From IMG/VR virus record IMGVR_UViG_2571042636_000009: 36,219 nucleotides of DNA; one strand, written 5' to 3'. A model generated the notes under the pieces. The model worked only from the letters and a program-made list of their open reading frames with translations. It ran no database searches and was not told where the DNA came from. Source of the stretch: a virus (lineage: Duplodnaviria > Heunggongvirae > Uroviricota > Caudoviricetes). A program made the translations under genes and the position numbers. This document shows, one piece after another, positions 2 to 29,296 of this stretch; the first letter of the stretch is position 1; each line of letters begins with the position of its first letter.

Positions 2-1297
2 TTAATTTTTCATTGCTTCGTTATGGGGCATGGTTGGGGCAAACTCGCTTAACTGTGTATTTAACAAAGCTACCTGTGCATTATTGTTTTCAGACATCCA
101 TTTTCCGTATACCTGAAATACCATTTGCGCATCTGCATGGCCCATCTGGTTTGCTATAAATGCCGGGTTAGCACCAGCTGTCAGCGACCAGCAGGCATAA
201 GTATGTCTCGACTGATATGATTTTCGATGGCGGAGTCCGGCACGTTTTATCGCTGCGTCCCACATCTGCCTTATTGAGTCAACGGTAAAATGGTCACCAT
301 AATTTTTTACTCTCGCTGACACTTCAGGTTGAAAAACAAAGGTGCATTTATGTTTTTCTGTTCTGCCATACTCTCTGAGGTGAACATCAATGATATGCTC
401 TTTGCTCAGTCTCGTTAATGTCATCTGACTCCGGAGAGCGTCGATTGCTGGCTTAATAAGATGAATGACCCGATTGGTTCCCGCCTGTGTTTTTGGTACC
501 GTGAAACGGTCTTTTGCTAAATTTCTCCTGATCATCATTGTTCCATTTTTCAGATCTATGTCCTCCCATCCAAGTGCACACAGCTCACCAGGGCGAACGC
601 CAGTATAAACAGAAACACACCATAAATTTTTGGCTTGCTGATTTCTGCACGCATCGATAAGACGGATGAATTCCTCCCGCGAAAGAGGATCCGGAATGGT
701 TCTTGATTCCTTTAATGGCGAGATCCCCTTAAACGGGTTATCTAACAGGTAACCGTTATCAACACCAAACTGGAACACGGCGTTAAGATTTGTCATGTAA
801 TTATTTACAGTTACAGCCGATCTCCCTGGTTGTGTAACAATATAGTTACTTTTGGGGATCTGGTATCCAGTCAGTAGCTCTTTACGAACCTCCAGTAATT
901 TTTCTTTATTAATCGATGAGGCAAGATTTTTTTCACCGATTATGCTCAGGATATTTTTGATGACGGCACGGTATGTGTTGAGTGATGTTTTTGCGACTTC
1001 AGTTTCTTTCAGTGCCAGAAATTTTTCAGCCAGTTCTTTTATGGTTAAATCTTGTCGGGCCTCACCAAATTTTTCCAGATTGCGTGAGGAGGGAAACTGT
1101 TTTGCATAGTCGAAAACACCAGTTTTTATTGCGTAACAAACAGAGGCGCGTAGCTCACCTGCAACGCGCCTGTTTTTTGCTGTGTCAGGAACCCCCAGGT
1201 TTTCCCTGACTCTTACGCCTTTATAAACAAACCAGATACGTAATTTCCCTCCATGGTTTTCCACGCCTGTCGGATATTTCATTTCAACTTCTCTCAT
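2..1297 (-). CDS. int: Phage tyrosine integrase (site-specific recombinase)
   Basis: 431-aa ORF with tyrosine-recombinase catalytic signature residues (TGVRPGE Arg, SRHTYA His-x-x-Arg, VYGKW Tyr); first gene of the prophage arm, followed by an excisionase-like gene. Alternative start at 1282 (MKYPTG). The 3-prime end is at the window edge, so the attachment site is probably outside the window. Confidence 0.85.
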   Translation of the reverse strand: MREVEMKYPTGVENHGGKLRIWFVYKGVRVRENLGVPDTAKNRRVAGELRASVCYAIKTGVFDYAKQFPSSRNLEKFGEARQDLTIKELAEKFLALKETEVAKTSLNTYRAVIKNILSIIGEKNLASSINKEKLLEVRKELLTGYQIPKSNYIVTQPGRSAVTVNNYMTNLNAVFQFGVDNGYLLDNPFKGISPLKESRTIPDPLSREEFIRLIDACRNQQAKNLWCVSVYTGVRPGELCALGWEDIDLKNGTMMIRRNLAKDRFTVPKTQAGTNRVIHLIKPAIDALRSQMTLTRLSKEHIIDVHLREYGRTEKHKCTFVFQPEVSARVKNYGDHFTVDSIRQMWDAAIKRAGLRHRKSYQSRHTYACWSLTAGANPAFIANQMGHADAQMVFQVYGKWMSENNNAQVALLNTQLSEFAPTMPHNEAMKN

Positions 1298-1316: not shown

Positions 1317-1568
1317 TCAAGTAAGATGACGTCTTGGTCTCGCTGATGCCTGGCGCTCAATCCAGCGATCAATTTCTTCCAGGTTGTAAAAGCATGGACT
1401 GTTATCCCATGGCATACCGTCATGAGCGACATGCTTATATTCCCTTCCTTCCATAAACGATTTTTCCCGGGCCTTTTTTAACGTACCTTTTTTTATTCCT
1501 TTCAGCGCAATTAACTGCTCTTCGGATACCCATTTGCCGGGAGAGACAATCATGATTACTTCGCTCAT
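1317..1568 (-). CDS. xis: Excisionase-like small DNA-binding protein
   Basis: 83-aa ORF immediately upstream of int on the same strand, small and basic; position and size fit a phage Xis. Start may be the internal Met at 1553. Confidence 0.55.
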   Translation of the reverse strand: MSEVIMIVSPGKWVSEEQLIALKGIKKGTLKKAREKSFMEGREYKHVAHDGMPWDNSPCFYNLEEIDRWIERQASARPRRHLT

Positions 1569-1640: not shown

Positions 1641-4112
1641 TTAAGAATCAGCCTGACTCGGGATCAGTTTTTGCCAGATAACTGAAACGTATTTTGCCTG
1701 GTAACGGGCGTCATCAAGTGCATTATGGCGCTCACCTTCGAATGGAATAGCCGTTCTGGCATCGAAGTCTATGGCTTTCCCCAGCTCAACGATTGTGCGT
1801 ACATCGCGATCGTTGTAGTAACGCCACGGGCAGGGGATCCCCTGCCGTTCGTATGAACGACGCAAAATCGTGTTGTCGAAGTTGGCTCCATTTCCCCAAA
1901 CCTGAACAAAAAATTCACCGGAGTTTTCGTCGATAAATTCCCGCAATTGTAACAGTGCATCATCTAACGGGATTTCATCGGTCATAATGGCAGATTGCGC
2001 TTCGCGTGATTGCTTAAGCCACCATTTAATGGTGTCCCGATCAATGACTCCGCCAGCAGTTTCCAGATCGATAGTCTTACTAAATTCCGGTCCCATATCT
2101 CCGGTTTGCGGATCGAAAAATATTGCACCTATTGAGATGATCGGGGCATCAGGATTTTTTCCCATGGTTTCAAGGTCGATCATTAGATGGTCACACGTCC
2201 TGCTGGTGGATGTGATTTCGTGATGACCGTTCACCTTAATTGAGTGATCTGCCGTCTCGCCAGTTTCATTATCGCTATTGTGATGCTGATTGCCGCCAGT
2301 GTTCTCCTTGTGTGGATGTTCAGCGCCTTCCATTTCCTCCAGATCATCTTCCTGAACTTCAACCTGATACTCTTCATCGAATGTTTCCTGGTATGTTGCG
2401 TCGCCCATCACCGCGCCACAATCAGGGCAGTTGCCGCCGCCGGTCTGACCGCAGGCGGTGCAGACTTTTTCCACTTCCAGTTGCGCCACTGGTTCAGGCT
2501 GTTTCGTTTCTGGCTCGTTTTGTAACGCATTTGTGCTGTTTTGTTCCGCTTTTTGGTAGTTCCGTTCCGATTCATGCTGGTTCTGGTTCACAGAATCGCG
2601 GGTCTGGATCCCCTTAACCCATTTCGGATCATTCGGGTCACTAATCCCTTCAACAAATTCACCACGTGACGCAGCAAGCAACTTATCGGCGTCAGGCTGG
2701 CTGATATTGGCTGCCTGCATAATTTTGTTTACTTCGTCAGCGGTAACTTTTATCGGCTCTGGTTGTTCTGAATCTTCAGCGGTATCTACATTTTGCGGTA
2801 AGCCCGTGTATGTGCCATTTTTTCGGGCAAAATATTCTTCTTTTGTGATTTCAGTGGCGCCAGCAGCCAGTGCCTTATCCAGACCAGAAAGTTTGTTTGC
2901 GCGACCGTATTTTTCTCCGTCCTTATCTGCGAAGAGGAAATAGAACGGCCCCTCACGCTCTACAGATGGTTCAGCTTCCGGCGCGGTTTCATTTTTTGGG
3001 ATATCAGATACCTCAGTTTCCACTGCATCAGTTTGTGTTTCTGATGACTGGAGAACATCAACAGTGCCCAGGTCTGTTTCTTCATTCTCAAACACGCCCT
3101 TTGTCGTCAGGTATTCGCAGATATATTTGTTCAGTGCTATGGGATCTTTGTGAATGTCGATCGGACGCTCACGGACAAGGCCAAAAATAGTCTGGCGGTC
3201 GTAGCGAAGGGCATCAGGCTGTTTGCGCATTGATGCCGAGATACGCTTCCAGTCTTCGCGGTCGTTGTCGATAACTTCTTTTTTTGCCCAGCGATGGATG
3301 CTGCCGTCAATGTTTCCGGCATCCACATCACCAGGCCAGAGAGCGTAGGCCAGTTCGTCATCCAGTGTTTTCCATGTCTGCTTGTATTCGCGATGAATGG
3401 CAGCAATGACCGGGCTGATTTTTCCTGTTGAATTTTCAGTGTACTGTTGATTGGTTCTGGCGCGGGCGAGATCAACAACAGACGTGTATTTTCCGGTTTC
3501 CTTGCGTTCACCTTCGCGACGTTTTTTCCAGATGCGCATCTCTGCCTGAATTTCGGGCCATTTAGCACCAGGAATACATTTATGCTTAACCCACCCAATG
3601 GCGTGCAACTTAAGCTCCGGATACATGGCGTTAACTTCTGGCATTTTCATCAACGCTTCAACGATATGTCCGTCGAATGTTGCCATGTCTTCCTGCAACA
3701 ATTCCTGTGCGCTAATAACCATATCAACGGTGATGTTTTCACATGTGTCGAACTTAACCATGACAGCGTTCTGTACTTCAGGGGCCAGCTTGTCAAAAGT
3801 GACGTTCATCGGATCGGATTCAGTCTCAACCGGGACAAAAGAAGCAGACTCCTCATCCCAGCGGTTTTCCTGCATATATTCAGCATCCCATGAATCGAGG
3901 GCAGGGCGGGGTATGCCAGGTTTATCCTCGCAGACAATAAATTTATAAGCGCAGTCCTGAGCAGCCGGATAATGTTCCAGGAACTGCCAGTGAAATTTTG
4001 CTCGAGCACGGCGTTCGTCGCCAGCTTCAATGGCTGTGGCTACAGCCACAGCGCCTTCTTCCCTTGTTGCCAGTTCGTCAGGAATAGCGGCGCAAATAAA
4101 GACTTTACTCAT
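1641..4112 (-). CDS. Large early protein with C-terminal DnaQ-like (DEDDh) 3-prime-5-prime exonuclease domain; intact counterpart of the YdfE fragment of K-12 Qin
   Basis: 823-aa ORF. The C-terminus carries exonuclease motifs (MIDLETMG, YNDRDVRT, HNALDDARY). The middle is acidic with a CTACGQTGGGNCPDCGA zinc-ribbon-like motif. Sits between xis and the dicB operon. Confidence 0.75.
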   Translation of the reverse strand: MSKVFICAAIPDELATREEGAVAVATAIEAGDERRARAKFHWQFLEHYPAAQDCAYKFIVCEDKPGIPRPALDSWDAEYMQENRWDEESASFVPVETESDPMNVTFDKLAPEVQNAVMVKFDTCENITVDMVISAQELLQEDMATFDGHIVEALMKMPEVNAMYPELKLHAIGWVKHKCIPGAKWPEIQAEMRIWKKRREGERKETGKYTSVVDLARARTNQQYTENSTGKISPVIAAIHREYKQTWKTLDDELAYALWPGDVDAGNIDGSIHRWAKKEVIDNDREDWKRISASMRKQPDALRYDRQTIFGLVRERPIDIHKDPIALNKYICEYLTTKGVFENEETDLGTVDVLQSSETQTDAVETEVSDIPKNETAPEAEPSVEREGPFYFLFADKDGEKYGRANKLSGLDKALAAGATEITKEEYFARKNGTYTGLPQNVDTAEDSEQPEPIKVTADEVNKIMQAANISQPDADKLLAASRGEFVEGISDPNDPKWVKGIQTRDSVNQNQHESERNYQKAEQNSTNALQNEPETKQPEPVAQLEVEKVCTACGQTGGGNCPDCGAVMGDATYQETFDEEYQVEVQEDDLEEMEGAEHPHKENTGGNQHHNSDNETGETADHSIKVNGHHEITSTSRTCDHLMIDLETMGKNPDAPIISIGAIFFDPQTGDMGPEFSKTIDLETAGGVIDRDTIKWWLKQSREAQSAIMTDEIPLDDALLQLREFIDENSGEFFVQVWGNGANFDNTILRRSYERQGIPCPWRYYNDRDVRTIVELGKAIDFDARTAIPFEGERHNALDDARYQAKYVSVIWQKLIPSQADS

Positions 4113-4205: not shown

Positions 4206-4397
4206 TTAAAGACCTGCCGGGATTTCGTTATTATCCTGGTGAATAACTTTATCGACCGGGTAACAGTTACCGGGAATTTTCTGTTCGGTTGCTGCAGTCA
4301 TACACTCCTGCATTGTCCTGTGCACACTGACTGCAATATCAACTGGCTCTCCGGAAACAAGAAAAACTGTCAGAACAAGCACAAATGCTGAATTCAT
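4206..4397 (-). CDS. ydfD: YdfD lysis protein (63 aa, N-terminal hydrophobic segment)
   Basis: Recalled YdfD sequence MNSAFVLVLTVFLVSGEP...; start overlaps the dicB stop (translational coupling); last gene of the dicB operon. Confidence 0.8.
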   Translation of the reverse strand: MNSAFVLVLTVFLVSGEPVDIAVSVHRTMQECMTAATEQKIPGNCYPVDKVIHQDNNEIPAGL

Positions 4398-4582
4398 TGT
4401 GCACATCCTTTTGGCATCAGACGTAAACGAGCCAGCATTGAAACAATGCATATTTTATTTAATAGCTCCCGTTCTTGTTTTCTCTTGTTAATGGCATCTT
4501 CAGTAAATACTGGGTTACTGATAGTGACACCAATTTCAAAACAACCTTCAGACGTATTAACGTTTGGTAATAACGTTTTCAT
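4394..4582 (-). CDS. dicB: DicB cell-division inhibitor (62 aa)
   Basis: ORF translates to MKTLLPNVNTSEGCFEIGVTISNPVFTEDAINKRKQERELLNKICIVSMLARLRLMPKGCAQ, which I recognise as DicB; lies directly downstream of the DicF sequence. Confidence 0.9.
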   Translation of the reverse strand: MKTLLPNVNTSEGCFEIGVTISNPVFTEDAINKRKQERELLNKICIVSMLARLRLMPKGCAQ

Positions 4583-4751: not shown

Positions 4752-4809
4752 AAAAAGGGCGGCAGAGCAGTCACGGAGTAAAACTGATACCGCCAAACGT
4801 CACCAGAAA
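4752..4809 (-). ncRNA. dicF: DicF small regulatory RNA (ftsZ-targeting sRNA)
   Basis: Minus strand reads TTTCTGGTGACGTTTGGCGGTATCAGTTTTACTCCGTGACTGCTCTGCCGCCCTTTTT, matching the DicF sequence as I recall it; located between ydfC and dicB as in Qin. Exact ends are approximate. Confidence 0.85.
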
Positions 4810-5975: not shown

Positions 5976-6614
5976 TTAAATATTTTGTTGAATTTTAAAG
6001 CATACGCCCAATATGCAAGATAGATCATCCAGCATAATTGAAGGGTAGCGAGGATTCGTGGGGACTAAAAGAATATCCGGCCCTTCTATCTCCAGTTTAC
6101 GAATGACAGGTGTTGTGGTCCCTTTGGGTAAGGCAAGGACAATATTTCCTGGTTGTACGGTTCGATCGGGATCAACAAAAACTGTTGAACCATTTGGGAT
6201 GGAAACTCCCCCACCAGATGTTGACATACTGTCACTCTCTAGAACAACTGCAAAGGTATTGGCCGGGATTTCTCCGACAAGCTGCACACAAGAGGTTATT
6301 GAGGAATTTTTCATATAATCACTCCAGCTTGCTGCCTGCTGAAGTGATAGTAGCGGAACCGTTTTTATCGGCGGTAAAGATAGATCAAGCGAATCACCTG
6401 TATTTAACTCTCCTCCATTAAGAAGCCAATTTTCGTTTACTTTCAATATTTTTGCCAGTGAACTTATGTAACGCGAGGACGGCGCTCCTCCACCGTTCAT
6501 CCATTGACTTACGGAGCCTTTTGATGCGCCAGTGGCATTGACAAGGTCTTTGCCTTTCAGGTTTAGCGCATGCATACGTTGGGTTATGCGTTCAGATATT
6601 GTTTGCTTGTTCAT
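5976..6614 (-). CDS. CI-like phage repressor, full length: N-terminal HTH plus C-terminal S24 (LexA-like) autopeptidase domain
   Basis: 212-aa ORF with an HTH-like N-terminus (GASKGSVSQWMNG), a Ser nucleophile context (ESDSMS) and a downstream Lys (VIRKLE) typical of S24 peptidases; divergent from the Cro-like gene. Confidence 0.85.
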   Translation of the reverse strand: MNKQTISERITQRMHALNLKGKDLVNATGASKGSVSQWMNGGGAPSSRYISSLAKILKVNENWLLNGGELNTGDSLDLSLPPIKTVPLLSLQQAASWSDYMKNSSITSCVQLVGEIPANTFAVVLESDSMSTSGGGVSIPNGSTVFVDPDRTVQPGNIVLALPKGTTTPVIRKLEIEGPDILLVPTNPRYPSIMLDDLSCILGVCFKIQQNI

Positions 6615-8962: not shown

Positions 8963-9093
8963 CGAGATTAAAGTGCATTAGTTCAGATGCAAATTGACAT
9001 TTTGTGGCACAGGGTAGAGCTAGCGTGGTTGTCCGCTTTGTGCCAATAGCGGACATTGCTGGCTCATGGTATGTTAGTTTAAGGAGGCAGGTT

Positions 9094-10116
9094 ATGCCCT
9101 GTATTTCGCTGTGGTATAATAGTTGCGCAATTGATACAAGGGAGCGTTACATCGTGAAAATTGTTTTCGAGGTTAATGGAAAGAAAGTTCCACTAAAATC
9201 TTTAAAATACATAAGCAAAAAAGATCAACTCGAAGTAATGAAAAACTGGTTCTTTGAAAACTTTGAAGATCCGGCAAATGCTTGTCCGTATGAAAGTAGA
9301 GAAGGTGGCTATGCTTACATATATGGCGGGCCGTATGATGCGAGCGAAGAACTACAATCCATCTTCGGTCAATATGTTAAATCTGAGTATATTGAGGAAT
9401 TAGTAGATGAATTACAAACACAATGTTTTGACTGGTCTGGAAACTCAAATAATATAGATGATTGGTACGATGATGATATCTACGACGCTGTAACGTCTTC
9501 CGGTAATCCGTATTTAAAATTCATTGATAATATCGATAAAATAAAAAAACTTGCAAAAGATAAAACTGAACAACAGCAAAAAAACCACTTGCTTAGTTTG
9601 CTCTACACGAATGTTATTACAGCTTTGGAAACGCTTTATGTTGAGCTATTCATTAATTCTATAGAGAAAGATGATGTCTACATAGCCAATTGTATAGAAA
9701 AAGGTAAGACTGAATTTAAAGTAAGCAAAGATATTGCTGCGTTGCCTTTCAAGGGTGAACCCATCGAGAAAATTAGGGGAGAGCTAATCAGGTCAATCAA
9801 GGAACACTTGATCAGTGCAAGCTGGCATAGCACTAAAAAGGTAATCGACCGCTATGAAGCTACATTCGATATAAAAGTACAAAAAGACTGTCCGATAGAA
9901 GCTATTGAATTGGCAACCCTCAATCGAAATCACTTAGTGCATCGTGGTGGAAAGGATAAAGAAGGGAACCTCGTAGTGATTACAGACCAGGATCTTGAAA
10001 CGCTGATTGAAAATGCATCGAACCTGGCAATTATGCTCTACAACAGTTTAAATGTAGCAACGAATAAAACCACCATTTTGCAACCAGATGACAAACCGTT
10101 CATTCATGAATTTTAA
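9094..10116 (+). CDS. Candidate defense/toxin-module protein A with a C-terminal HEPN-like Rx4H motif (predicted RNase-type domain)
   Basis: 340-aa ORF (AAGGAGG 6 nt before the ATG at 9094; alternative GTG start at 9154 giving 320 aa). Strongly AT-rich compared with the flanks. Motif RNHLVH near the C-terminus matches the HEPN Rx4-6H signature. No named family recognised. Confidence 0.6.
   Translation: MPCISLWYNSCAIDTRERYIVKIVFEVNGKKVPLKSLKYISKKDQLEVMKNWFFENFEDPANACPYESREGGYAYIYGGPYDASEELQSIFGQYVKSEYIEELVDELQTQCFDWSGNSNNIDDWYDDDIYDAVTSSGNPYLKFIDNIDKIKKLAKDKTEQQQKNHLLSLLYTNVITALETLYVELFINSIEKDDVYIANCIEKGKTEFKVSKDIAALPFKGEPIEKIRGELIRSIKEHLISASWHSTKKVIDRYEATFDIKVQKDCPIEAIELATLNRNHLVHRGGKDKEGNLVVITDQDLETLIENASNLAIMLYNSLNVATNKTTILQPDDKPFIHEF
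9112..9120 (+). promoter_or_regulatory. Candidate extended -10 promoter element (TGgTATAAT) at the 5-prime edge of the AT-rich insert
   Basis: TGGTATAAT is a perfect extended -10; its position would fit the GTG start at 9154. It conflicts with the ATG start at 9094, so either the element or the longer start is wrong. Confidence 0.35.
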
Positions 10117-10131
10117 TAGCGCAGGTCATAC

Positions 10132-11133
10132 ATGGATATTCGCACACGAAAGACAAAATTTTTAGAGTCGTTAGATTCAACTGAAGTGATACGCAAAGCA
10201 GTAAGTCTCGCTATAGATTGCATTATTGATAATCATAATAGTAATGAAGATACCCCCTTAGTTATTACCAGCTATGATGATCTCTGTAGAATCCAGGTGC
10301 TAAATTATGTACAGGAGTTTTGCGAAGCTGCATTCCCTGATATGGATGAATATTACTTTAGTCCTAACATACTTCGCATCAACGGCAAGACTAGTGAAGA
10401 AGCTTGTATTAACTTAATTAAACTCTTAAGAAGTACAAAAGGCATGCTATTCTGGTCCGATGCCCCATCGTGGTTCGCTAGTCTCCCCGACGGATTATTC
10501 CATGTTGTTAACATTGATCAAAAAATCGTTACTCGCGGCCTTAATAAGAAAAACTCTAAGCCGACAATAATCAATAAAGATTACAGTGTAGATACACTAC
10601 TATCAGAGCTATTTTTGAATGGCGCACACATGGAGCAACCCAACGTACACAACGTTTCTGAGGGAAACATGAAGTTCTATGATGAATGCCATGCTGGATT
10701 AATCAGACCAATACCCGCTCCAATAGGCGCGTCATACGATGAAGAGATCACAATTAATTCTCCAGATTGGCAAAAGCTCGCGTGTGTAGCTTTACGCCGC
10801 TATCAGTCGAAGGAATGTCATGACGGAATGCAATGGGATACAACCGATCATGGTTGGACTGATGTAATCGCGTATCCATTCGTCGAAGAAATACAATCAA
10901 TGGATAATAGTGGTTATCGACAATGTTTAGTTGGGCTGGTCACAATAAACAATTCAAATGCAAATTCTCCGTACCTATCTACCGTTTGGATACATCCATT
11001 TTATCGCAGGAGAGGGTTATTAAGTAAGTTATGGCCAAAATTACAAGAGTTATATGGAAGTAACTTCGAAATTGAGCGACCTAATGAAAATATGAAAGCA
11101 TTTCTGAAAAGTGCGAAACACGCAGATTACTAA
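10132..11133 (+). CDS. Candidate defense/toxin-module protein B with a C-terminal GNAT-like acetyltransferase motif
   Basis: 333-aa ORF starting 15 nt after the stop of protein A (operon), AT-rich. The C-terminal segment LVGLVTINN...STVWIHPFYRRRGLLSKLW resembles a GNAT beta4-alpha3 motif; the N-terminal roughly 190 aa is unrecognised. Confidence 0.55.
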   Translation: MDIRTRKTKFLESLDSTEVIRKAVSLAIDCIIDNHNSNEDTPLVITSYDDLCRIQVLNYVQEFCEAAFPDMDEYYFSPNILRINGKTSEEACINLIKLLRSTKGMLFWSDAPSWFASLPDGLFHVVNIDQKIVTRGLNKKNSKPTIINKDYSVDTLLSELFLNGAHMEQPNVHNVSEGNMKFYDECHAGLIRPIPAPIGASYDEEITINSPDWQKLACVALRRYQSKECHDGMQWDTTDHGWTDVIAYPFVEEIQSMDNSGYRQCLVGLVTINNSNANSPYLSTVWIHPFYRRRGLLSKLWPKLQELYGSNFEIERPNENMKAFLKSAKHADY

Positions 11134-11535: not shown

Positions 11536-11750
11536 TTGATTTTATATTGGCGAGGTGACGTGAGTTAAGTAGAATTGCTGCGGGTGCTTGAGGCTATCTG
11601 CCTCAGGCATGAACACCAAAGGCAGATAGAGAAAAGCCCCAGTTAACATTACGCGTCCTGCAAGACGCTTAACATTAATCTGAGGCCAATTTCATGCTAG
11701 ACACATGTAGGTTAGCCTCTTACGTGCCGAAAGGCAAGGAGAAGCAGGCT

Positions 11751-11906
11751 ATGAAGCAGCAAAAGGCGATGTTAATCGCCCTGATCGTCATCTGTTTAAC
11801 CGTCATAGTGACGGCACTGGTAACGAGGAAAGACCTCTGCGAGGTACGAATCCGAACCGGCCAGACGGAGGTCGCTGTCTTCACAGCTTACGAACCTGAG
11901 GAGTAA
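11751..11906 (+). CDS. hokD: Hok-family membrane toxin HokD (RelF), 51 aa
   Basis: Translation MKQQKAMLIALIVICLTVIVTALVTRKDLCEVRIRTGQTEVAVFTAYEPEE recognised as HokD/RelF; the in-frame upstream extension from 11694 is read as a mok-like leader. Confidence 0.9.
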   Translation: MKQQKAMLIALIVICLTVIVTALVTRKDLCEVRIRTGQTEVAVFTAYEPEE

Positions 11907-14490: not shown

Positions 14491-14536
14491 CTGATGAATC
14501 CCCTAATGATTTTTATCAAAATCATTAAGTTAAGGT

Positions 14537-14605
14537 AGATACACATCTTGTCATATGATCAAATGGTTTCGCCAAAAATCAATAATCAGACAACAAAATG
14601 TGCGA
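14537..14605 (-). ncRNA. IS10 RNA-OUT antisense RNA (approximate coordinates)
   Basis: Placed from known IS10 organisation (RNA-OUT is antisense to the transposase translation start near the outside end); not independently verifiable here. A GATC Dam site at 14558-14561 lies in the pIN region. Confidence 0.4.
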
Positions 14606-15806
14606 ACTCGATATTTTACACGACTCTCTTTACCAATTCTGCCCCGAATTACACTTAAAACGACTCAACAGCTTAACGTTGGCTTGCCACGCCTTACTTG
14701 ACTGTAAAACTCTCACTCTTACCGAACTTGGCCGTAACCTGCCAACCAAAGCGAGAACAAAACATAACATCAAACGAATCGACCGATTGTTAGGTAATCG
14801 TCACCTCCACAAAGAGCGACTCGCTGTATACCGTTGGCATGCTAGCTTTATCTGTTCGGGCAATACGATGCCCATTGTACTTGTTGACTGGTCTGATATC
14901 CGTGAGCAAAAACGGCTTATGGTATTGCGAGCTTCAGTCGCACTACACGGTCGTTCTGTTACTCTTTATGAGAAAGCGTTCCCGCTTTCAGAGCAATGTT
15001 CAAAGAAAGCTCATGACCAATTTCTAGCCGACCTTGCGAGCATTCTACCGAGTAACACCACACCGCTCATTGTCAGTGATGCTGGCTTTAAAGTGCCATG
15101 GTATAAATCCGTTGAGAAGCTGGGTTGGTACTGGTTAAGTCGAGTAAGAGGAAAAGTACAATATGCAGACCTAGGAGCGGAAAACTGGAAACCTATCAGC
15201 AACTTACATGATATGTCATCTAGTCACTCAAAGACTTTAGGCTATAAGAGGCTGACTAAAAGCAATCCAATCTCATGCCAAATTCTATTGTATAAATCTC
15301 GCTCTAAAGGCCGAAAAAATCAGCGCTCGACACGGACTCATTGTCACCACCCGTCACCTAAAATCTACTCAGCGTCGGCAAAGGAGCCATGGATTCTAGC
15401 AACTAACTTACCTGTTGAAATTCGAACACCCAAACAACTTGTTAATATCTATTCGAAGCGAATGCAGATTGAAGAAACCTTCCGAGACTTGAAAAGTCCT
15501 GCCTACGGACTAGGCCTACGCCATAGCCGAACGAGCAGCTCAGAGCGTTTTGATATCATGCTGCTAATCGCCCTGATGCTTCAACTAACATGTTGGCTTG
15601 CGGGCGTTCATGCTCAGAAACAAGGTTGGGACAAGCACTTCCAGGCTAACACAGTCAGAAATCGAAACGTACTCTCAACAGTTCGCTTAGGCATGGAAGT
15701 TTTGCGGCATTCTGGCTACACAATAACAAGGGAAGACTCACTCGTGGCTGCAACCCTGCTTACTCAAAATCTATTCACACATGGTTACGTTTTGGGGAAA
15801 TTATGA
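14598..15806 (+). CDS. IS10 transposase
   Basis: 402-aa ORF MCELDILHDSLYQFCPELHLKRLNSL..., recognised as IS10 transposase; starts at IS position 108. Confidence 0.95.
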   Translation: MCELDILHDSLYQFCPELHLKRLNSLTLACHALLDCKTLTLTELGRNLPTKARTKHNIKRIDRLLGNRHLHKERLAVYRWHASFICSGNTMPIVLVDWSDIREQKRLMVLRASVALHGRSVTLYEKAFPLSEQCSKKAHDQFLADLASILPSNTTPLIVSDAGFKVPWYKSVEKLGWYWLSRVRGKVQYADLGAENWKPISNLHDMSSSHSKTLGYKRLTKSNPISCQILLYKSRSKGRKNQRSTRTHCHHPSPKIYSASAKEPWILATNLPVEIRTPKQLVNIYSKRMQIEETFRDLKSPAYGLGLRHSRTSSSERFDIMLLIALMLQLTCWLAGVHAQKQGWDKHFQANTVRNRNVLSTVRLGMEVLRHSGYTITREDSLVAATLLTQNLFTHGYVLGKL

Positions 15807-25816: not shown

Positions 25817-27324
25817 TGGCAATTCTTGATGATGTGATTGGCGTTTTTTCACCAGGATGGAAAGCGGCAAGGCTGCGTTCCCGTGCGGTGATCCAGGCTT
25901 ATGAGGCCGTAAAAACGACGCGGACACACAAAGCCCGACGGGAGAACCGAACTGCCGACCAGTTAAGCCAGTACGGGGCCGTGTCGTTACGTGAGCAGGC
26001 CCGTTACCTTGATAACAACCACGATCTGGTTATTGGTGTATTTGACAAGCTGGAAGAACGGGTGGTGGGGAAAAACGGGATTATTGTCGAGCCACATCCG
26101 GTATTACGCAATGGGGCCATTGCCCGTGACCTGGCTGCGGAGATTCGCACCCGATGGAGTGAATGGTCTGTCAGCCCGGAAGTCACCGGGCAGTTTACCC
26201 GTCCGATGCTGGAACGTCTGATGCTTCGTACCTGGCTGCGCGATGGTGAGGTGTTTGCCCAGATGGTTTCCGGGCGCATAAACAGCCTGACGCCTTCTGC
26301 CGGTGTTCATTTCTGGCTGGAGGCGCTCGAGCCGGACTTTATTCCCATGACCAGTGATGAGAGCAACAGGCTGAATCAGGGCGTGTTTGTTGATGACTGG
26401 GGGCGTCCCGAAAAATATCTGGTGTATAAAAGCCGTCCCGTATCCGGACGGCAGATGGAAACCAAAGAAGTGGATGCAGAGCGAATGCTGCATCTTAAAT
26501 TTGTTCGCCGTCTGCACCAGATGCGCGGGACGTCTTTATTGTCCGGTGTGCTGATCCGCCTCAGTGCTCTGAAAGAGTATGAAGATTCTGAGCTGACTGC
26601 AGCAAGGATCGCCGCTGCTCTGGGGATGTACATCCGGAAAGGCGACGGGCAGAGCTATGAAGCGGATGGTAATGGCAGCAAGGATAAGGAACGCGAGCTT
26701 ACCATTCAGCCAGGCATTATTTACGATGATCTGAAACCCGGCGAAGAAATCGGAATGGTGAAGTCGGATCGCCCCAATCCTAACCTTGAAACTTTTCGTA
26801 ATGGTCAGTTGCGTGCCGTGGCGGCGGGCAGTCGTCTGAGTTTTTCCAGTACAGCGCGCAACTATAACGGCACTTACAGCGCCCAGCGTCAGGAGCTGGT
26901 TGAATCCACTGATGGCTACCTGATCCTGCAGGACTGGTTTATTGGTGCCGTCACCCGTCCGATGTATCGTGCCTGGCTGAAACAGGCTGTGGCATCCGGT
27001 GTTATCAGGCTACCCCGCGATCTTGACCGTTCTTCACTGTATACCGCGGTGTATTCCGGACCGGTGATGCCGTGGATTGACCCTGTTAAGGAGGCTGAGG
27101 CCTGGAAAATCCAGATTCGTGGTGGAGCGGCGACAGAATCAGACTGGGTACGTGCTGGTGGTCGTAATCCGGATGATGTCAAACGTCGGCGCAAGGCCGA
27201 AATTGATGAAAACCGCAAACTGGATCTGGTATTTGATACCGATCCGGCCAGTGATAAAGGAGGCAGCAGTGCCGCAACGAAACGACATGAGCCGCAGCAC
27301 ACCGACGACCAGTCCGAAGAATAA
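25816..27324 (+). CDS. Portal protein (lambda gpB-like)
   Basis: 502-aa ORF overlapping the W stop (TGATG), in the canonical position after the large terminase and W. Confidence 0.8.
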   Translation: MAILDDVIGVFSPGWKAARLRSRAVIQAYEAVKTTRTHKARRENRTADQLSQYGAVSLREQARYLDNNHDLVIGVFDKLEERVVGKNGIIVEPHPVLRNGAIARDLAAEIRTRWSEWSVSPEVTGQFTRPMLERLMLRTWLRDGEVFAQMVSGRINSLTPSAGVHFWLEALEPDFIPMTSDESNRLNQGVFVDDWGRPEKYLVYKSRPVSGRQMETKEVDAERMLHLKFVRRLHQMRGTSLLSGVLIRLSALKEYEDSELTAARIAAALGMYIRKGDGQSYEADGNGSKDKERELTIQPGIIYDDLKPGEEIGMVKSDRPNPNLETFRNGQLRAVAAGSRLSFSSTARNYNGTYSAQRQELVESTDGYLILQDWFIGAVTRPMYRAWLKQAVASGVIRLPRDLDRSSLYTAVYSGPVMPWIDPVKEAEAWKIQIRGGAATESDWVRAGGRNPDDVKRRRKAEIDENRKLDLVFDTDPASDKGGSSAATKRHEPQHTDDQSEE

Positions 27325-29296
27325 TTCCTGGTTCAGGATGCAGGCTGGTCACCAGAGTGACGCGGATATTTATATTTATGACGAGATTGGTTTCTGGGGT
27401 GTTACAGCGAAGCAGTTTATCAGTGATCTGAATGCACTGGGCGATATCACCCACATTAATCTCCATATTAATTCACCGGGTGGCGATGTCTTTGAAGGCA
27501 TCGCCATTTTTAATGCGCTGAAAACACATGGTGCGTCCATTACCGTTTATGTCGACGGTGTGGCGGCGTCAATGGCGTCGGTCATTGCGATGGTGGGAAA
27601 CCCGGTCATTATGCCGGAAAACACCTTCATGATGATTCATAAACCATTTGGCTTTACGGGCGGTGATGCGGAGGACATGCGCACCTATGCCGACCTGCTC
27701 GATAAAGTTGAGGCGGTTCTGTTACCCGCTTATGCACAGAAAACCGGGAAAACCACCGATGAAATTGCTGCCATGCTGGCGGATGAGACCTGGATGTCCG
27801 GTGCCGAATGTCTGGCACATGGATTTGCTGATCAGGTAACGCCAGCCGTTAAGGCAATGGCATGTATTCAGTCAAAACGTACAGAGGAATTTAAAAAGAT
27901 GCCGGAATCCATTCGAAACATGATTACTCCGCCACGCAACAGTGCTCCACGCGTACAGGATAATGAACCTGAAGCCTCCCGGACGCCAGTGCAGGCAGCA
28001 GCACCCGTGGTGGATGAAAACAGCATCCGTGCGCAGGTACTGGCAGAGCAAAAAGCGCGTGTAAACGGTATTAATGATCTGTTTGCCATGTTTGGCGGGC
28101 GTTATCAGACGCTGCAGGCTCAGTGTCTTGCCGATCCTGAATGTTCGCTGGAGCAGGCCCGCGAAAAGCTGTTGAACGAGATGGGGCGCGAGTCCACGCC
28201 ATCCAATAAAAATACCCCGGCTCATATTTATGCCGGTAACGGTAATTTTGTGGGGGACGGGATCCGCCAGGCGCTGATGGCGCGTGCCGGATTTGAAAAA
28301 ACCGAACGTGATAATGTTTACAACGGGATGACCCTGCGTGAATATGCCCGTATGTCACTAACTGAACGGGGTATTGGGGTTTCCGGTTATAACCCGATGC
28401 AGATGGTCGGTGCGGCGTTCACACACAGTACGTCTGACTTCGGTAATATTCTGCTGGATGTTGCGAACAAAGCCATTCTGCAGGGCTGGGAAGATGCCCC
28501 TGAAACCTATGAACAGTGGACGCGGAAAGGTCAGTTGTCTGATTTTAAAATTGCCCATCGTGTGGGTATGGGTGGCTTCAGTGCTCTGCGTCAGGTGCGT
28601 GAAGGGGCGGAATATAAATACGTCACCACCGGAGATAAACAGGCCACTATTGCACTGGCGACCTATGGCGAGCTGTTCAGTATCACCCGTCAGGCCATTA
28701 TCAATGATGATCTGAATATGCTGACCGATGTCCCGATGAAACTGGGCCGTGCGGCGAAATCCACTATTGCCGATCTGGTTTATGCCATTCTGACGTCTAA
28801 CCCGAAAATCTCCACAGATAATGTAAGTCTGTTCGATAAAGCGAAACATGCAAACGTACTGGAGAGCGCTGCAATGGACGTGGCATCGCTGGATAAAGCC
28901 CGCCAGTTGATGCGCGTTCAGAAAGAGGGGGAGCGTCATCTGAATATTCGTCCTGCGTTCGTACTGGTACCGACGGCGATGGAGTCTGTTGCTAACCAGG
29001 TCATTCGCTCCTCAAGTGTCAAGGGGGCTGACATTAACGCCGGTATTATTAACCCGGTGAAAGATTTTGCGACCGTTATTGCAGAGCCTCGTCTTGATGA
29101 TAACAGCCAGACCACCTTCTACCTGGCTGCGTCAAAAGGCTCCGATACGATTGAAGTGGCTTATCTCAACGGTGTGGATACGCCATATATTGATCAGATG
29201 GAGGGCTTCAGTGTGGATGGCGTGACAACGAAAGTGCGTATTGACGCCGGTGTCGCGCCAGTTGATCACCGCGGTCTGGTGAAATGTACGGCGTAA
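27269..29296 (+). CDS. Prohead protease (ClpP/S49-like) fused to major capsid protein
   Basis: 675-aa ORF with AAAGGAGG 6 nt before the GTG at 27269. The N-terminal 200 aa look like a ClpP/S49 peptidase (NSPGGDVFEGIAIFNAL, VDGVAASMASVIAMVG); the rest is capsid-sized. Followed by a strong terminator. Confidence 0.75.
   Translation: MPQRNDMSRSTPTTSPKNNSWFRMQAGHQSDADIYIYDEIGFWGVTAKQFISDLNALGDITHINLHINSPGGDVFEGIAIFNALKTHGASITVYVDGVAASMASVIAMVGNPVIMPENTFMMIHKPFGFTGGDAEDMRTYADLLDKVEAVLLPAYAQKTGKTTDEIAAMLADETWMSGAECLAHGFADQVTPAVKAMACIQSKRTEEFKKMPESIRNMITPPRNSAPRVQDNEPEASRTPVQAAAPVVDENSIRAQVLAEQKARVNGINDLFAMFGGRYQTLQAQCLADPECSLEQAREKLLNEMGRESTPSNKNTPAHIYAGNGNFVGDGIRQALMARAGFEKTERDNVYNGMTLREYARMSLTERGIGVSGYNPMQMVGAAFTHSTSDFGNILLDVANKAILQGWEDAPETYEQWTRKGQLSDFKIAHRVGMGGFSALRQVREGAEYKYVTTGDKQATIALATYGELFSITRQAIINDDLNMLTDVPMKLGRAAKSTIADLVYAILTSNPKISTDNVSLFDKAKHANVLESAAMDVASLDKARQLMRVQKEGERHLNIRPAFVLVPTAMESVANQVIRSSSVKGADINAGIINPVKDFATVIAEPRLDDNSQTTFYLAASKGSDTIEVAYLNGVDTPYIDQMEGFSVDGVTTKVRIDAGVAPVDHRGLVKCTA

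Follow-up and report, generated by a model that had tools for sequence, protein, structure and literature searches.

The 36,219-nucleotide stretch of viral DNA IMGVR_UViG_2571042636_000009 (the window, here and below) carries next to its excisionase gene a gene for an 823-aa protein of the YdfE type. Comparison of this protein with RecE indicates that its N-terminal ~620 aa are RecE-like and that the nuclease alone is swapped, a relationship that is new here. The C-terminal ~185 aa are, by their sequence and predicted structure, an intact DexA/Rv2179c-type DEDDh 3'-5' exonuclease domain. The DEDDh-tailed form has no recT-type partner gene at the loci examined. The function favoured here, tentatively and at slightly less than an even chance, is that of an early-expressed enzyme which would trim 3' DNA ends in phages relying on host RecBCD and RecA.

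A DEDDh nuclease domain at the C-terminus

The complete coding sequence and the portion of it specifying the nuclease are as follows.

1641..4112, minus strand: intact YdfE-type exonuclease, complete coding sequence (open reading frame (ORF) list; PHROG 2082 'exonuclease', matched end to end at 1822 bits)
1653..2195, minus strand: predicted DEDDh 3'-5' exonuclease domain, aa 640-820, Rv2179c-like/DexA-like (Pfam PF16473, catalytic columns, AlphaFold2 (AF2) model, Foldseek)

An earlier note on this DNA had proposed a DnaQ-like DEDDh domain instead of the nuclease fold of RecE or lambda Exo; Pfam, the catalytic residues and Foldseek all agree with that proposal. Residues 642-813 matched PF16473 over profile positions 2-177 of 177 (E-value (E) 2.3e-67; 226.5 bits against a cut-off of 27), and the nuclease domain matched PHROG 255 at E 1e-79. 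When the domain was aligned with T4 DexA and eight enterobacterial homologs, D646, E648, D746, H796 and D801 did not vary. These residues are laid out as Exo I (DxE, D646/E648), Exo II (D746) and Exo III (Hx4D, H796/D801). When PDB sequences were searched with phmmer, only 8KEL and 8KEN were matched (8kel at E 1.6e-6), both of them the 227-aa 'exodeoxyribonuclease' T4 DexA. Rv2179c itself gave no direct match in the PDB sequence search at E<=1.

The AF2 model of the whole protein has a predicted local distance difference test (pLDDT) score of ~90 across aa 640-820. Foldseek comparison of the model with the PDB placed DexA first (8ken/8kel, E 2e-10, with a template modelling score of ~0.65-0.72 on the DexA chain), followed by RNase T, oligoribonuclease (Orn)/REXO2, 3'hExo, CRN-4 and Cap18. 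The predicted structure is thus an RNase H-like DEDD fold with DexA as its best match, in keeping with the exonuclease fold that had been expected.

Relation of the N-terminal region to RecE

The regions compared with RecE are listed below. The ratios of nonsynonymous to synonymous divergence (dN/dS) here and in later sections are from pairwise comparison with the mEp460 and Evi copies of the gene.

3489..4112, minus strand: N1 head, aa 1-208, with an alpha/beta subdomain (aa 1-95) and a helical subdomain (aa 105-208) (AF2)
3084..3380, minus strand: N2 helical module, aa 245-343, the Pfam YdfE_C region (pLDDT >94; dN/dS 0.16)
2250..2693, minus strand: RecE-shared module, aa 474-621, mostly predicted disordered (BLASTP E 8e-64)

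In BLASTP comparison with the 1048-aa RecE of Rac-SA53, aa 474-621 were 73% identical to RecE aa 471-611, a stretch that takes in a CxxC knuckle and an acidic tail. N2 matched RecE aa 295-368 weakly (E 3e-4). The N1 head corresponds to Pfam YdfE_N and is remotely homologous to PF06630, the N-terminal domain of RecE. When 20 YdfE-type heads were aligned by hhalign with 17 RecE-type heads, probabilities of 99.1-99.5% (E 1e-18 to 5e-23) were obtained over 224-249 columns, against 0.1-0.3% for reversed, column-shuffled and unrelated controls. On this profile comparison, the two types of head are homologous. Since the heads align, N2 is matched and aa 474-621 are closely similar, the protein is RecE-like from end to end except for its catalytic domain. 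The earlier note had set the C-terminus apart from a fold of the RecE type; this stands, and the nuclease domain is the only part to which it applies, the N-terminal ~620 aa being placed by hhalign and BLASTP as homologous to those of RecE.

In RecE, the PF06630 domain at the N-terminus is accompanied by a C-terminal PD-(D/E)XK domain (DUF3799/PDDEXK). The 823-aa protein gave no direct Pfam match to PF06630 and has no PD-(D/E)XK domain, the DEDDh domain occupying that position. It matched the NCBIfam exoVIII model PRK09709 only in part (280 bits against a cut-off of 1269). By nuclease and by RecT partner the protein is outside RecE, and its sequence and predicted structural features place it in the DEDDh/PF16473 family.

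Exchange of modules among relatives

Searched with aa 1-470, 1.84 billion cluster representatives yielded only 187 clusters, and the family is therefore narrow. Fifty-six long members were mapped. Their heads were either YdfE-type N1 or PF06630, N2 was shared, and the mid and linker modules were optional. At the C-terminus a DEDDh domain, a PD-(D/E)XK domain or neither was present, and all four combinations of head and nuclease were seen. In the same phmmer mapping N2 was common to YdfE-type and RecE-type proteins, being present in both head classes.

The long relatives without a phmmer-recognisable nuclease domain, 24 in number, fell into three groups. A ~260-aa C-terminal module, related neither to DEDDh nor to PD-(D/E)XK (hhalign 0.1-0.2%), is common to 17 of them, including P0128, P0131, P0132, P0143, P0158 and P0170 (alignment A5). 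Four (the P0182/P0232 cluster) look by eye like divergent PD-(D/E)XK, and the other three (P0126, P0223, P0259) share a separate C-terminal module. Rad52/Sak-like motifs were seen by eye in the ~260-aa module, with Pfam Rad52_Rad22 reaching E 0.041 only, and a PDB profile search with it found nothing. The proteins carrying this third module may be the 'RecE-2' proteins, described as having no nuclease domain, of Zheng et al. 2025 (PMC12315714). At the P0131 locus (L021 4001-6717) a Sipho_Gp157 gene comes after the third-module gene, and beyond it lies an integrase gene.

Association with recT and content of Chi sites

Scaffold genes with a PD-(D/E)XK tail were followed by recT at 4/4 loci (Rac-SA53, P0129, P0204 and P0241); RecT was matched at E 2e-36 in the P0129 locus and at E 2e-34 in the P0204 locus. 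DEDDh-tailed genes ran straight into xis/int, with no annealase gene, at 9/9 loci (the window, HannyBb, Tritos, mEp460, Evi, P0138, P0233, P0240 and P0123). Among the ORFs between the repressor and int genes of the window, neither an annealase (single-strand annealing protein) nor a Gam candidate was found by size and similarity.

The Chi octamer GCTGGTGG occurs 10 times in the window against 1.15 expected, an excess of ~9-fold that no shuffle reached. The sites are biased in strand, 8 on the plus strand and 2 on the minus strand, and one of them lies within the exonuclease gene. HannyBb (L022) has 7 sites against 1.44 expected.

2202, 7192, 7237, 11313, 12812, 12870, 19875 and 27154, plus strand: Chi (octamer count)
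13276 and 13328, minus strand: Chi (octamer count)

The Rec modules of lambdoid phages have been classified by Zheng et al. (Genome Res 2025, PMC12315714), who noted DnaQ-like 3'-5' nucleases in some of them. In that classification Tritos is the prototype of a class in which a nuclease is present, the single-strand annealing protein (SAP), single-strand binding protein (SSB) and anti-RecBCD function being absent. Chi sites are many in the Tritos class (21/6 to 7/2 top/bottom), and the authors argue that RecBCD is exploited by Chi-rich phages lacking Rec functions (PMC12315714).

Domain anatomy and selection

Two AF2 models show a beads-on-a-string arrangement in which folded domains lie between low-confidence linkers. 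Two further segments of the N-terminal region were distinguished.

2952..3083, minus strand: acidic, predicted-disordered linker, aa 344-387 (pLDDT 33-38)
2808..2951, minus strand: folded 'mid' domain of beta-hairpins and helices, aa 388-435 (pLDDT 91-96)

Purifying selection on the folded domains is strong, with dN/dS of 0.03-0.20 against 0.6-0.8 in the linkers. The strongest constraint in the protein falls on the mid domain (0.03-0.05), which recurs among YdfE-head relatives irrespective of the C-terminal module. The N1 head (pLDDT >90) has a dN/dS of 0.06-0.07 and the nuclease domain one of 0.15-0.20. The linker at aa 344-387 carries a net charge of -6 to -7 per 30 residues and has a dN/dS of 0.68-0.77, and the RecE-shared module at aa 474-621 (pLDDT ~35-60) has one of 0.34-0.43. 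A Foldseek search of BFVD with the N-terminal 345 aa (AF2 pLDDT 90) gave no match at E<=1e-3, and neither the PDB nor BFVD yielded an informative fold match for the N1 head.

Synonymous divergence (dS) of the DEDDh domain was 0.065 against mEp460 and 1.12 against Evi, with values of ~0.6 for the mid domain and 0.15 for N2. As dS changes abruptly between segments in both comparisons, the gene itself is mosaic. The shifts lie at domain borders (1641-4112 compared with L013 and L014) and point to repeated intragenic recombination at the linkers.

The CxxC knuckle and the acidic run

The long low-confidence linker at aa 439-636 holds two compact sequence features.

2418..2462, minus strand: CxxC-x7-CxxC knuckle CTACGQTGGGNCPDC, aa 551-565, putative Zn site (sequence)
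2313..2402, minus strand: highly acidic stretch, aa 571-600, 13 D/E in 30 residues (composition scan)

The CxxC pair and the acidic stretch, which the earlier note had placed ahead of the nuclease domain, are both present in the sequence. The knuckle is formed by C551, C554, C562 and C565; the acidic run lies between it and the nuclease domain and is common to RecE. The knuckle is kept in Rac RecE as well as in the copies of mEp460, Evi, Tritos and HannyBb, and is missing in relatives P0123, P0128, P0135, P0138, P0140, P0190, P0244, P0257, P0266 and P0268. The AF2 confidence of the region is low (pLDDT ~50-60). Of the zinc-ribbon domain that had been proposed, the four-cysteine pair is real, but it forms a small knuckle in a low-confidence linker shared with RecE and is not family-wide. 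The zinc ribbon was dropped as a core functional or defining domain because most family members have no knuckle.

The gene and its position within the early-left operon

The ORF of 823 codons and a stop is a complete coding sequence with an ATG start and GAGG ~12 nucleotides (nt) upstream. An 823-codon ORF with such matches is far beyond chance. The genes around it are as follows.

2..1297, minus strand: tyrosine integrase (PHROG 1, E 4e-77)
1317..1568, minus strand: excisionase, directly downstream of the exonuclease gene (PHROG 539, E 1e-35)
4206..4397, minus strand: ydfD-like gene, directly upstream of the exonuclease gene (PHROG 1092 and 1251 for the ydfD/dicB pair)
4394..4582, minus strand: dicB-like gene (PHROG 1092 and 1251 for the ydfD/dicB pair)
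4757..4808, minus strand: DicF small RNA, within the leftward operon (Rfam RF00039, 76.7 bits against a gathering score of 48)
5976..6614, minus strand: CI-type repressor, at the right end of the early-left region (PHROG 4, E 1.5e-40)

With xis-int directly downstream and the ydfD/dicB/DicF block upstream, the gene occupies the recombination-gene slot adjoining xis to which it had been assigned. The upstream order of ydfD and dicB is the same in the dicB operon of K-12 Qin, in Tritos and in mEp460. Three small ORFs lie between the repressor gene and DicF, and their matches are to PHROGs of 54-70 aa named without a function. DicF sits between the ydfC-like and dicB-like genes, and this apparently intact prophage keeps the entire layout of the K-12 dicB operon.

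The gaps that flank the exonuclease gene are of 72 nt on the xis side and 93 nt on the ydfD/dicB side. Consensus matches for a promoter or terminator of its own were at or below the expectation from shuffled sequence. From these short gaps and the want of any above-chance signal we infer co-transcription from the early-left promoter. The exonuclease gene is part of the early-left operon of a lambdoid prophage of the Qin/mEp460/Tritos type.

Distribution, ydfE identity and annotation

The gene is 99.4% identical in HannyBb, 99.3% in PhiR42_1 and 98.9% in Tritos, and 87-92% identical in mEp460_ev081, Evi and the PPompW prophages. A match was present in 4800/5426 complete E. coli genomes, with >=80% coverage in 3537/5426; the number of matching places per genome had a median of 2 and a maximum of 10. 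The gene is therefore among the commonest of E. coli prophage genes, with coverage of at least 80% in ~65% of complete genomes.

In K-12, the first 767 nt of the gene are matched at 99.7%, after which comes IS2. The fragment lies in Qin, after dicB-ydfD and before the intQ remnant, and from this context it is therefore ydfE. The protein had been taken for the intact form of K-12 ydfE, and the 767-nt match, cut by IS2 in Qin, bears this out. Homologs 95-100% identical are listed with hits to Pfam YdfE_N (PF27430) and YdfE_C (PF27432), both of them models of the N-terminal region, which places the protein in the YdfE family.

The family already has entries in RefSeq, PHROGs and Pfam, where the protein is annotated as a 3'-5' exonuclease. 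RefSeq names it '3'-5' exonuclease' or 'exonuclease', and several phage records call it 'exonuclease VIII', a label that is wrong for the catalytic domain. Disrupted copies are seen in K-12 (ydfE, by IS2), in BL21, in the frameshifted O26 PPompW and as a split copy of 456+157+183 aa. The '183-aa standalone exonucleases' of 70-90% identity were considered as independent genes and rejected, at least one cluster of them being a fragment of a split long gene. Entries of 140-190 aa named '3'-5' exonuclease' are often fragments of disrupted copies (L019 737-3127; L015 1501-3968; L001 6001-6768), and counts of E. coli 'standalone DexA homologs' are therefore probably inflated.

Other features of the prophage

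The cII gene and a replication-initiator gene run rightward past the repressor gene, and further right come a Ren-like gene, hok/sok, an HNH gene, a probable IS10 insertion, and the endolysin, large terminase and fused protease-capsid genes. After the Ren-like gene, two adjacent genes of GC content 0.38-0.40 (9004-10116, plus strand, 370 aa; 10132-11133, plus strand, 333 aa) matched only PHROGs named without a function (17908 and 16994) and are moron or defence candidates. The sok antitoxin RNA (120 bits; 11582-11756, plus strand) marks a hok/sok-type toxin-antitoxin locus; a locus of this type is also found in Qin (hokD) and in HannyBb (MokW-like).

An IS10 RNA-OUT match (97 bits; 14536-14605, minus strand) adjoins a 402-aa ORF (14598-15806, plus strand) without a PHROG hit, and IS10 has probably been inserted in the nin/Q region of the prophage. 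A cspA-type 5' untranslated region thermoregulator was found at 20690-21105 on the plus strand (111 bits), and the GC content falls to 0.34-0.39 at 17-22 kb. The thermoregulator implies that the prophage carries a cold-shock gene, as Qin does with cspB/cspI. The 739-aa ORF at 27077-29296 (plus strand) matched PHROGs for the head maturation protease as well as for the major head protein and is a fused protease-capsid gene, as has likewise been described for phage LLS (PMC12315714).

Discussion

A role in trimming 3' ends for recombination by host enzymes could be played out as follows. The gene would be transcribed with the pL operon in lytic growth or on induction. The RecE-like scaffold would bring the nuclease to the substrates of RecE, namely double-strand ends and recombination or replication intermediates, where the Mg-dependent DEDDh site would take nucleotides off 3' ends. 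Such trimming could turn 3'-tailed ends into blunt ones on which RecBCD can load, and could clear away non-homologous 3' tails or flaps, allowing invading ends to prime synthesis. The protein would in that case stand in for RecE+RecT as a single-gene alternative of opposite polarity. In this phage, which has no annealase and no RecBCD inhibitor but many Chi sites, trimming of 3' ends would serve host-dependent recombination. DexA acts in intron homing, which points to a related end-processing job. Intact copies of the gene are carried by viable phages (HannyBb, Tritos, mEp460 and Evi). According to a 2023 review, the N-terminal domain of RecE is of unknown function, and linear-linear recombination proceeds better with full-length RecE than with its nuclease domain alone (PMC11611040). 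The advantage of full-length RecE in such end-to-end recombination shows that the scaffold acts in recombination.

Several points weigh against this role. The usual effect of 3'-5' exonucleases on homologous recombination is inhibitory, the invasive 3' end being destroyed (PMC12315714). The fold matches of the scaffold being uninformative, its targeting of ends is an assumption. PF16473 is named after an exoribonuclease, and the substrate may be DNA or RNA, modified or unmodified. A standalone E. coli relative of the nuclease domain, ~60% identical, is judging by its sequence probably the reported EcD, an anti-T4 defence nuclease. The recT pattern is clean across both head types in what is a small sample (4 loci against 9). 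The pseudogene copies in K-12 Qin and O26 PPompW indicate that the gene is dispensable for prophage carriage. Literature on ydfE gave incidental mentions only, and no functional study turned up; the earlier note had likewise called the role unclear. 

A wider reading, which we regard as unlikely, is that the RecE/YdfE N-terminal region is a general and exchangeable lambdoid 'DNA-end platform', the DEDDh form being a new one-protein recombination strategy that hands the ends of phage DNA to RecBCD at Chi. If this were true, the platform would carry a 5'-3' nuclease together with RecT, a 3'-5' nuclease alone, or a non-nuclease and possibly Rad52-like module. Host RecBCD would be used at Chi rather than blocked, and the role of the RecE N-terminus would be revealed. 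If the third module were an annealase, carrying recombination effectors would be a general role of the scaffold, and the recombination reading would be favoured.

Inter-phage exclusion or defence is a rather improbable explanation. The DEDDh domain would on this account degrade the genome of a competitor (5-hydroxymethylcytosine (5hmC)-containing T-even DNA or the 3' ends of RNA phages), with the host being protected. Related nucleases have been reported to stop phages. EcD ('HREX'), an E. coli homolog of DexA, blocks T4 when expressed from a plasmid and cuts 5hmC DNA but not unmodified DNA (PMC12153337), and prophage-borne ISG20-like DEDDh nucleases with auxiliary domains ('TONDO') defend against MS2 and Qbeta according to a 2026 preprint (PMC13344964). 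DexA is the closest solved structure to the domain described here, and standalone ~190-aa enterobacterial homologs are 58-60% identical to it, several of them with Ala at residue 78 like EcD. Many such ~190-aa proteins fit the description of EcD, with D at residue 7 and A at residue 78; true standalone forms (P0376 and others) are ~60% identical, and one of them lies in a different type of prophage. EcD itself (HAK9828821.1) was not found among ten clusters of standalone homologs, and failure to locate the exact accession counts against the proposal.

The residues near the 5hmC contact of DexA bear on exclusion in both directions. W152 of DexA, which makes that contact, aligns with Tyr766, whereas several standalone relatives have Trp. 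Y766 is nevertheless aromatic, and D782 and D784 lie near the position of DexA D169. The alignment is loose here: W763 stands three residues before Y766, D169 falls within D782-F783-D784, and the tetramer residue D90 of DexA aligns with D718/A719. The position of the gene is less favourable. It shows no promoter-like signal of its own and lies inside an early-left operon under repressor control, which predicts lytic rather than lysogen expression. Its product, of 823 aa and with a RecE scaffold, is built differently from EcD (~190 aa) and TONDO (<500 aa), and the best match to PADLOC models covered 23 residues only (E 0.024). A recE-equivalent position and an anti-correlation with recT would not be needed of a defence gene.

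Anti-defence is less probable again. The early enzyme would destroy 3'-ended immune nucleic acids such as retron multicopy single-stranded DNA, complementary DNA made by defence reverse transcriptases, or oligonucleotide signals. The gene is predicted to be early-expressed, is non-essential and highly mosaic, and lies in the accessory/counter-defence region of a lambdoid phage, and its fold relatives include Orn/REXO2, which act on short oligonucleotides, and Cap18, which is associated with the cyclic-oligonucleotide-based antiphage signalling system (CBASS). A 2026 preprint reportedly shows, to go by its title, that host SbcB controls activation of the DRT10 reverse-transcriptase defence. The RecE scaffold, the recE slot and the alternation with PD-(D/E)XK+RecT are however left unexplained by anti-defence, and no defence system is adjacent.

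Nucleotide scavenging, in which fragments of host DNA or oligonucleotides would be degraded in the manner of DexA to mononucleotides for phage replication, is distinctly improbable. The gene would be expressed with the kil-type host-disabling functions dicB, ydfD and DicF. Against this, temperate lambdoid phages are not known to degrade host DNA, bulk degradation would not need a conserved 620-aa RecE-like scaffold, and the anti-correlation with RecT is unexplained. Scavenging is one of the two established roles of DexA, intron homing being the other (Kang et al., NAR 2025, PMC12153337).

That the gene is a decaying or selfish remnant, a function-less mosaic left over from recombination of a recE-type with a dnaQ-type gene, is very improbable: its mosaicism is strong (in a single pairwise comparison, dS jumps between domains from 0.065 to 1.12) and fragments are frequent (K-12 ydfE, BL21, the PPompW frameshifts and the 456+157+183-aa split copy), but the full-length ORF is intact in HannyBb, Tritos, mEp460 and Evi and covered to at least 80% in 3537 genomes, dN/dS is 0.03-0.20 in every folded domain, and the five catalytic residues are invariant.

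A shared scaffold combined with a nuclease of opposite polarity and a lost recT amounts to a natural experiment on the 600-aa RecE N-terminus, a region that matters for linear-linear recombineering. It bears on recombination-dependent growth in lambdoid phages that lack Gam and are rich in Chi, among them many prophages of pathogenic E. coli. If exclusion or anti-defence were true, the protein would be a very widespread new player in phage-phage and phage-host conflict.

Comparison with known systems

T4 DexA, whose structure has been solved (PMC12153337), belongs to the same DEDDh subfamily (PF16473, PHROG 255), and all five catalytic residues align. Identity between DexA and the nuclease domain is ~21-27%, and the extra loops of DexA are missing in the 823-aa protein. 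In contrast to DexA and EcD, the nuclease domain here forms the tail of a long protein. The founder of PF16473, M. tuberculosis Rv2179c, is represented by a profile match over the full 177-position model; unlike the 823-aa protein, it is a standalone exoribonuclease of a non-phage organism. ExoI (SbcB) and ExoX are host 3'-5' exonucleases of the DEDD superfamily whose substrates are 3' tails in recombination intermediates. They differ from the 823-aa protein in being host-encoded, in having no RecE-like scaffold and in belonging to different subfamilies, and their net effect on recombination is often inhibitory.

The Tritos 'nuclease-only' class is the nearest in genome organisation. Tritos has a copy of the exonuclease gene, 98.9% identical, among genes of the same order, and its class and the window alike combine a nuclease with many Chi sites and with the absence of SAP, SSB and anti-RecBCD functions. 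The main text of PMC12315714 does not contain the architecture of this protein, its RecE-like scaffold or the nuclease swap.

RecE (exonuclease VIII) of Rac occupies the same slot, as the last large early-left gene before xis/int, and its N-terminal ~600 aa are homologous. Its nuclease is of the PD-(D/E)XK type, acts 5'-3' and forms a tetrameric ring, whereas that of the 823-aa protein is DEDDh and, by its class, 3'-5'. The mid domain is present in the 823-aa protein and undetected in RecE. RecE has a RecT partner, whereas xis follows the 823-aa gene directly. Relative to known systems, the protein is thus a RecE variant that stands without an annealase partner and bears a nuclease of opposite polarity.

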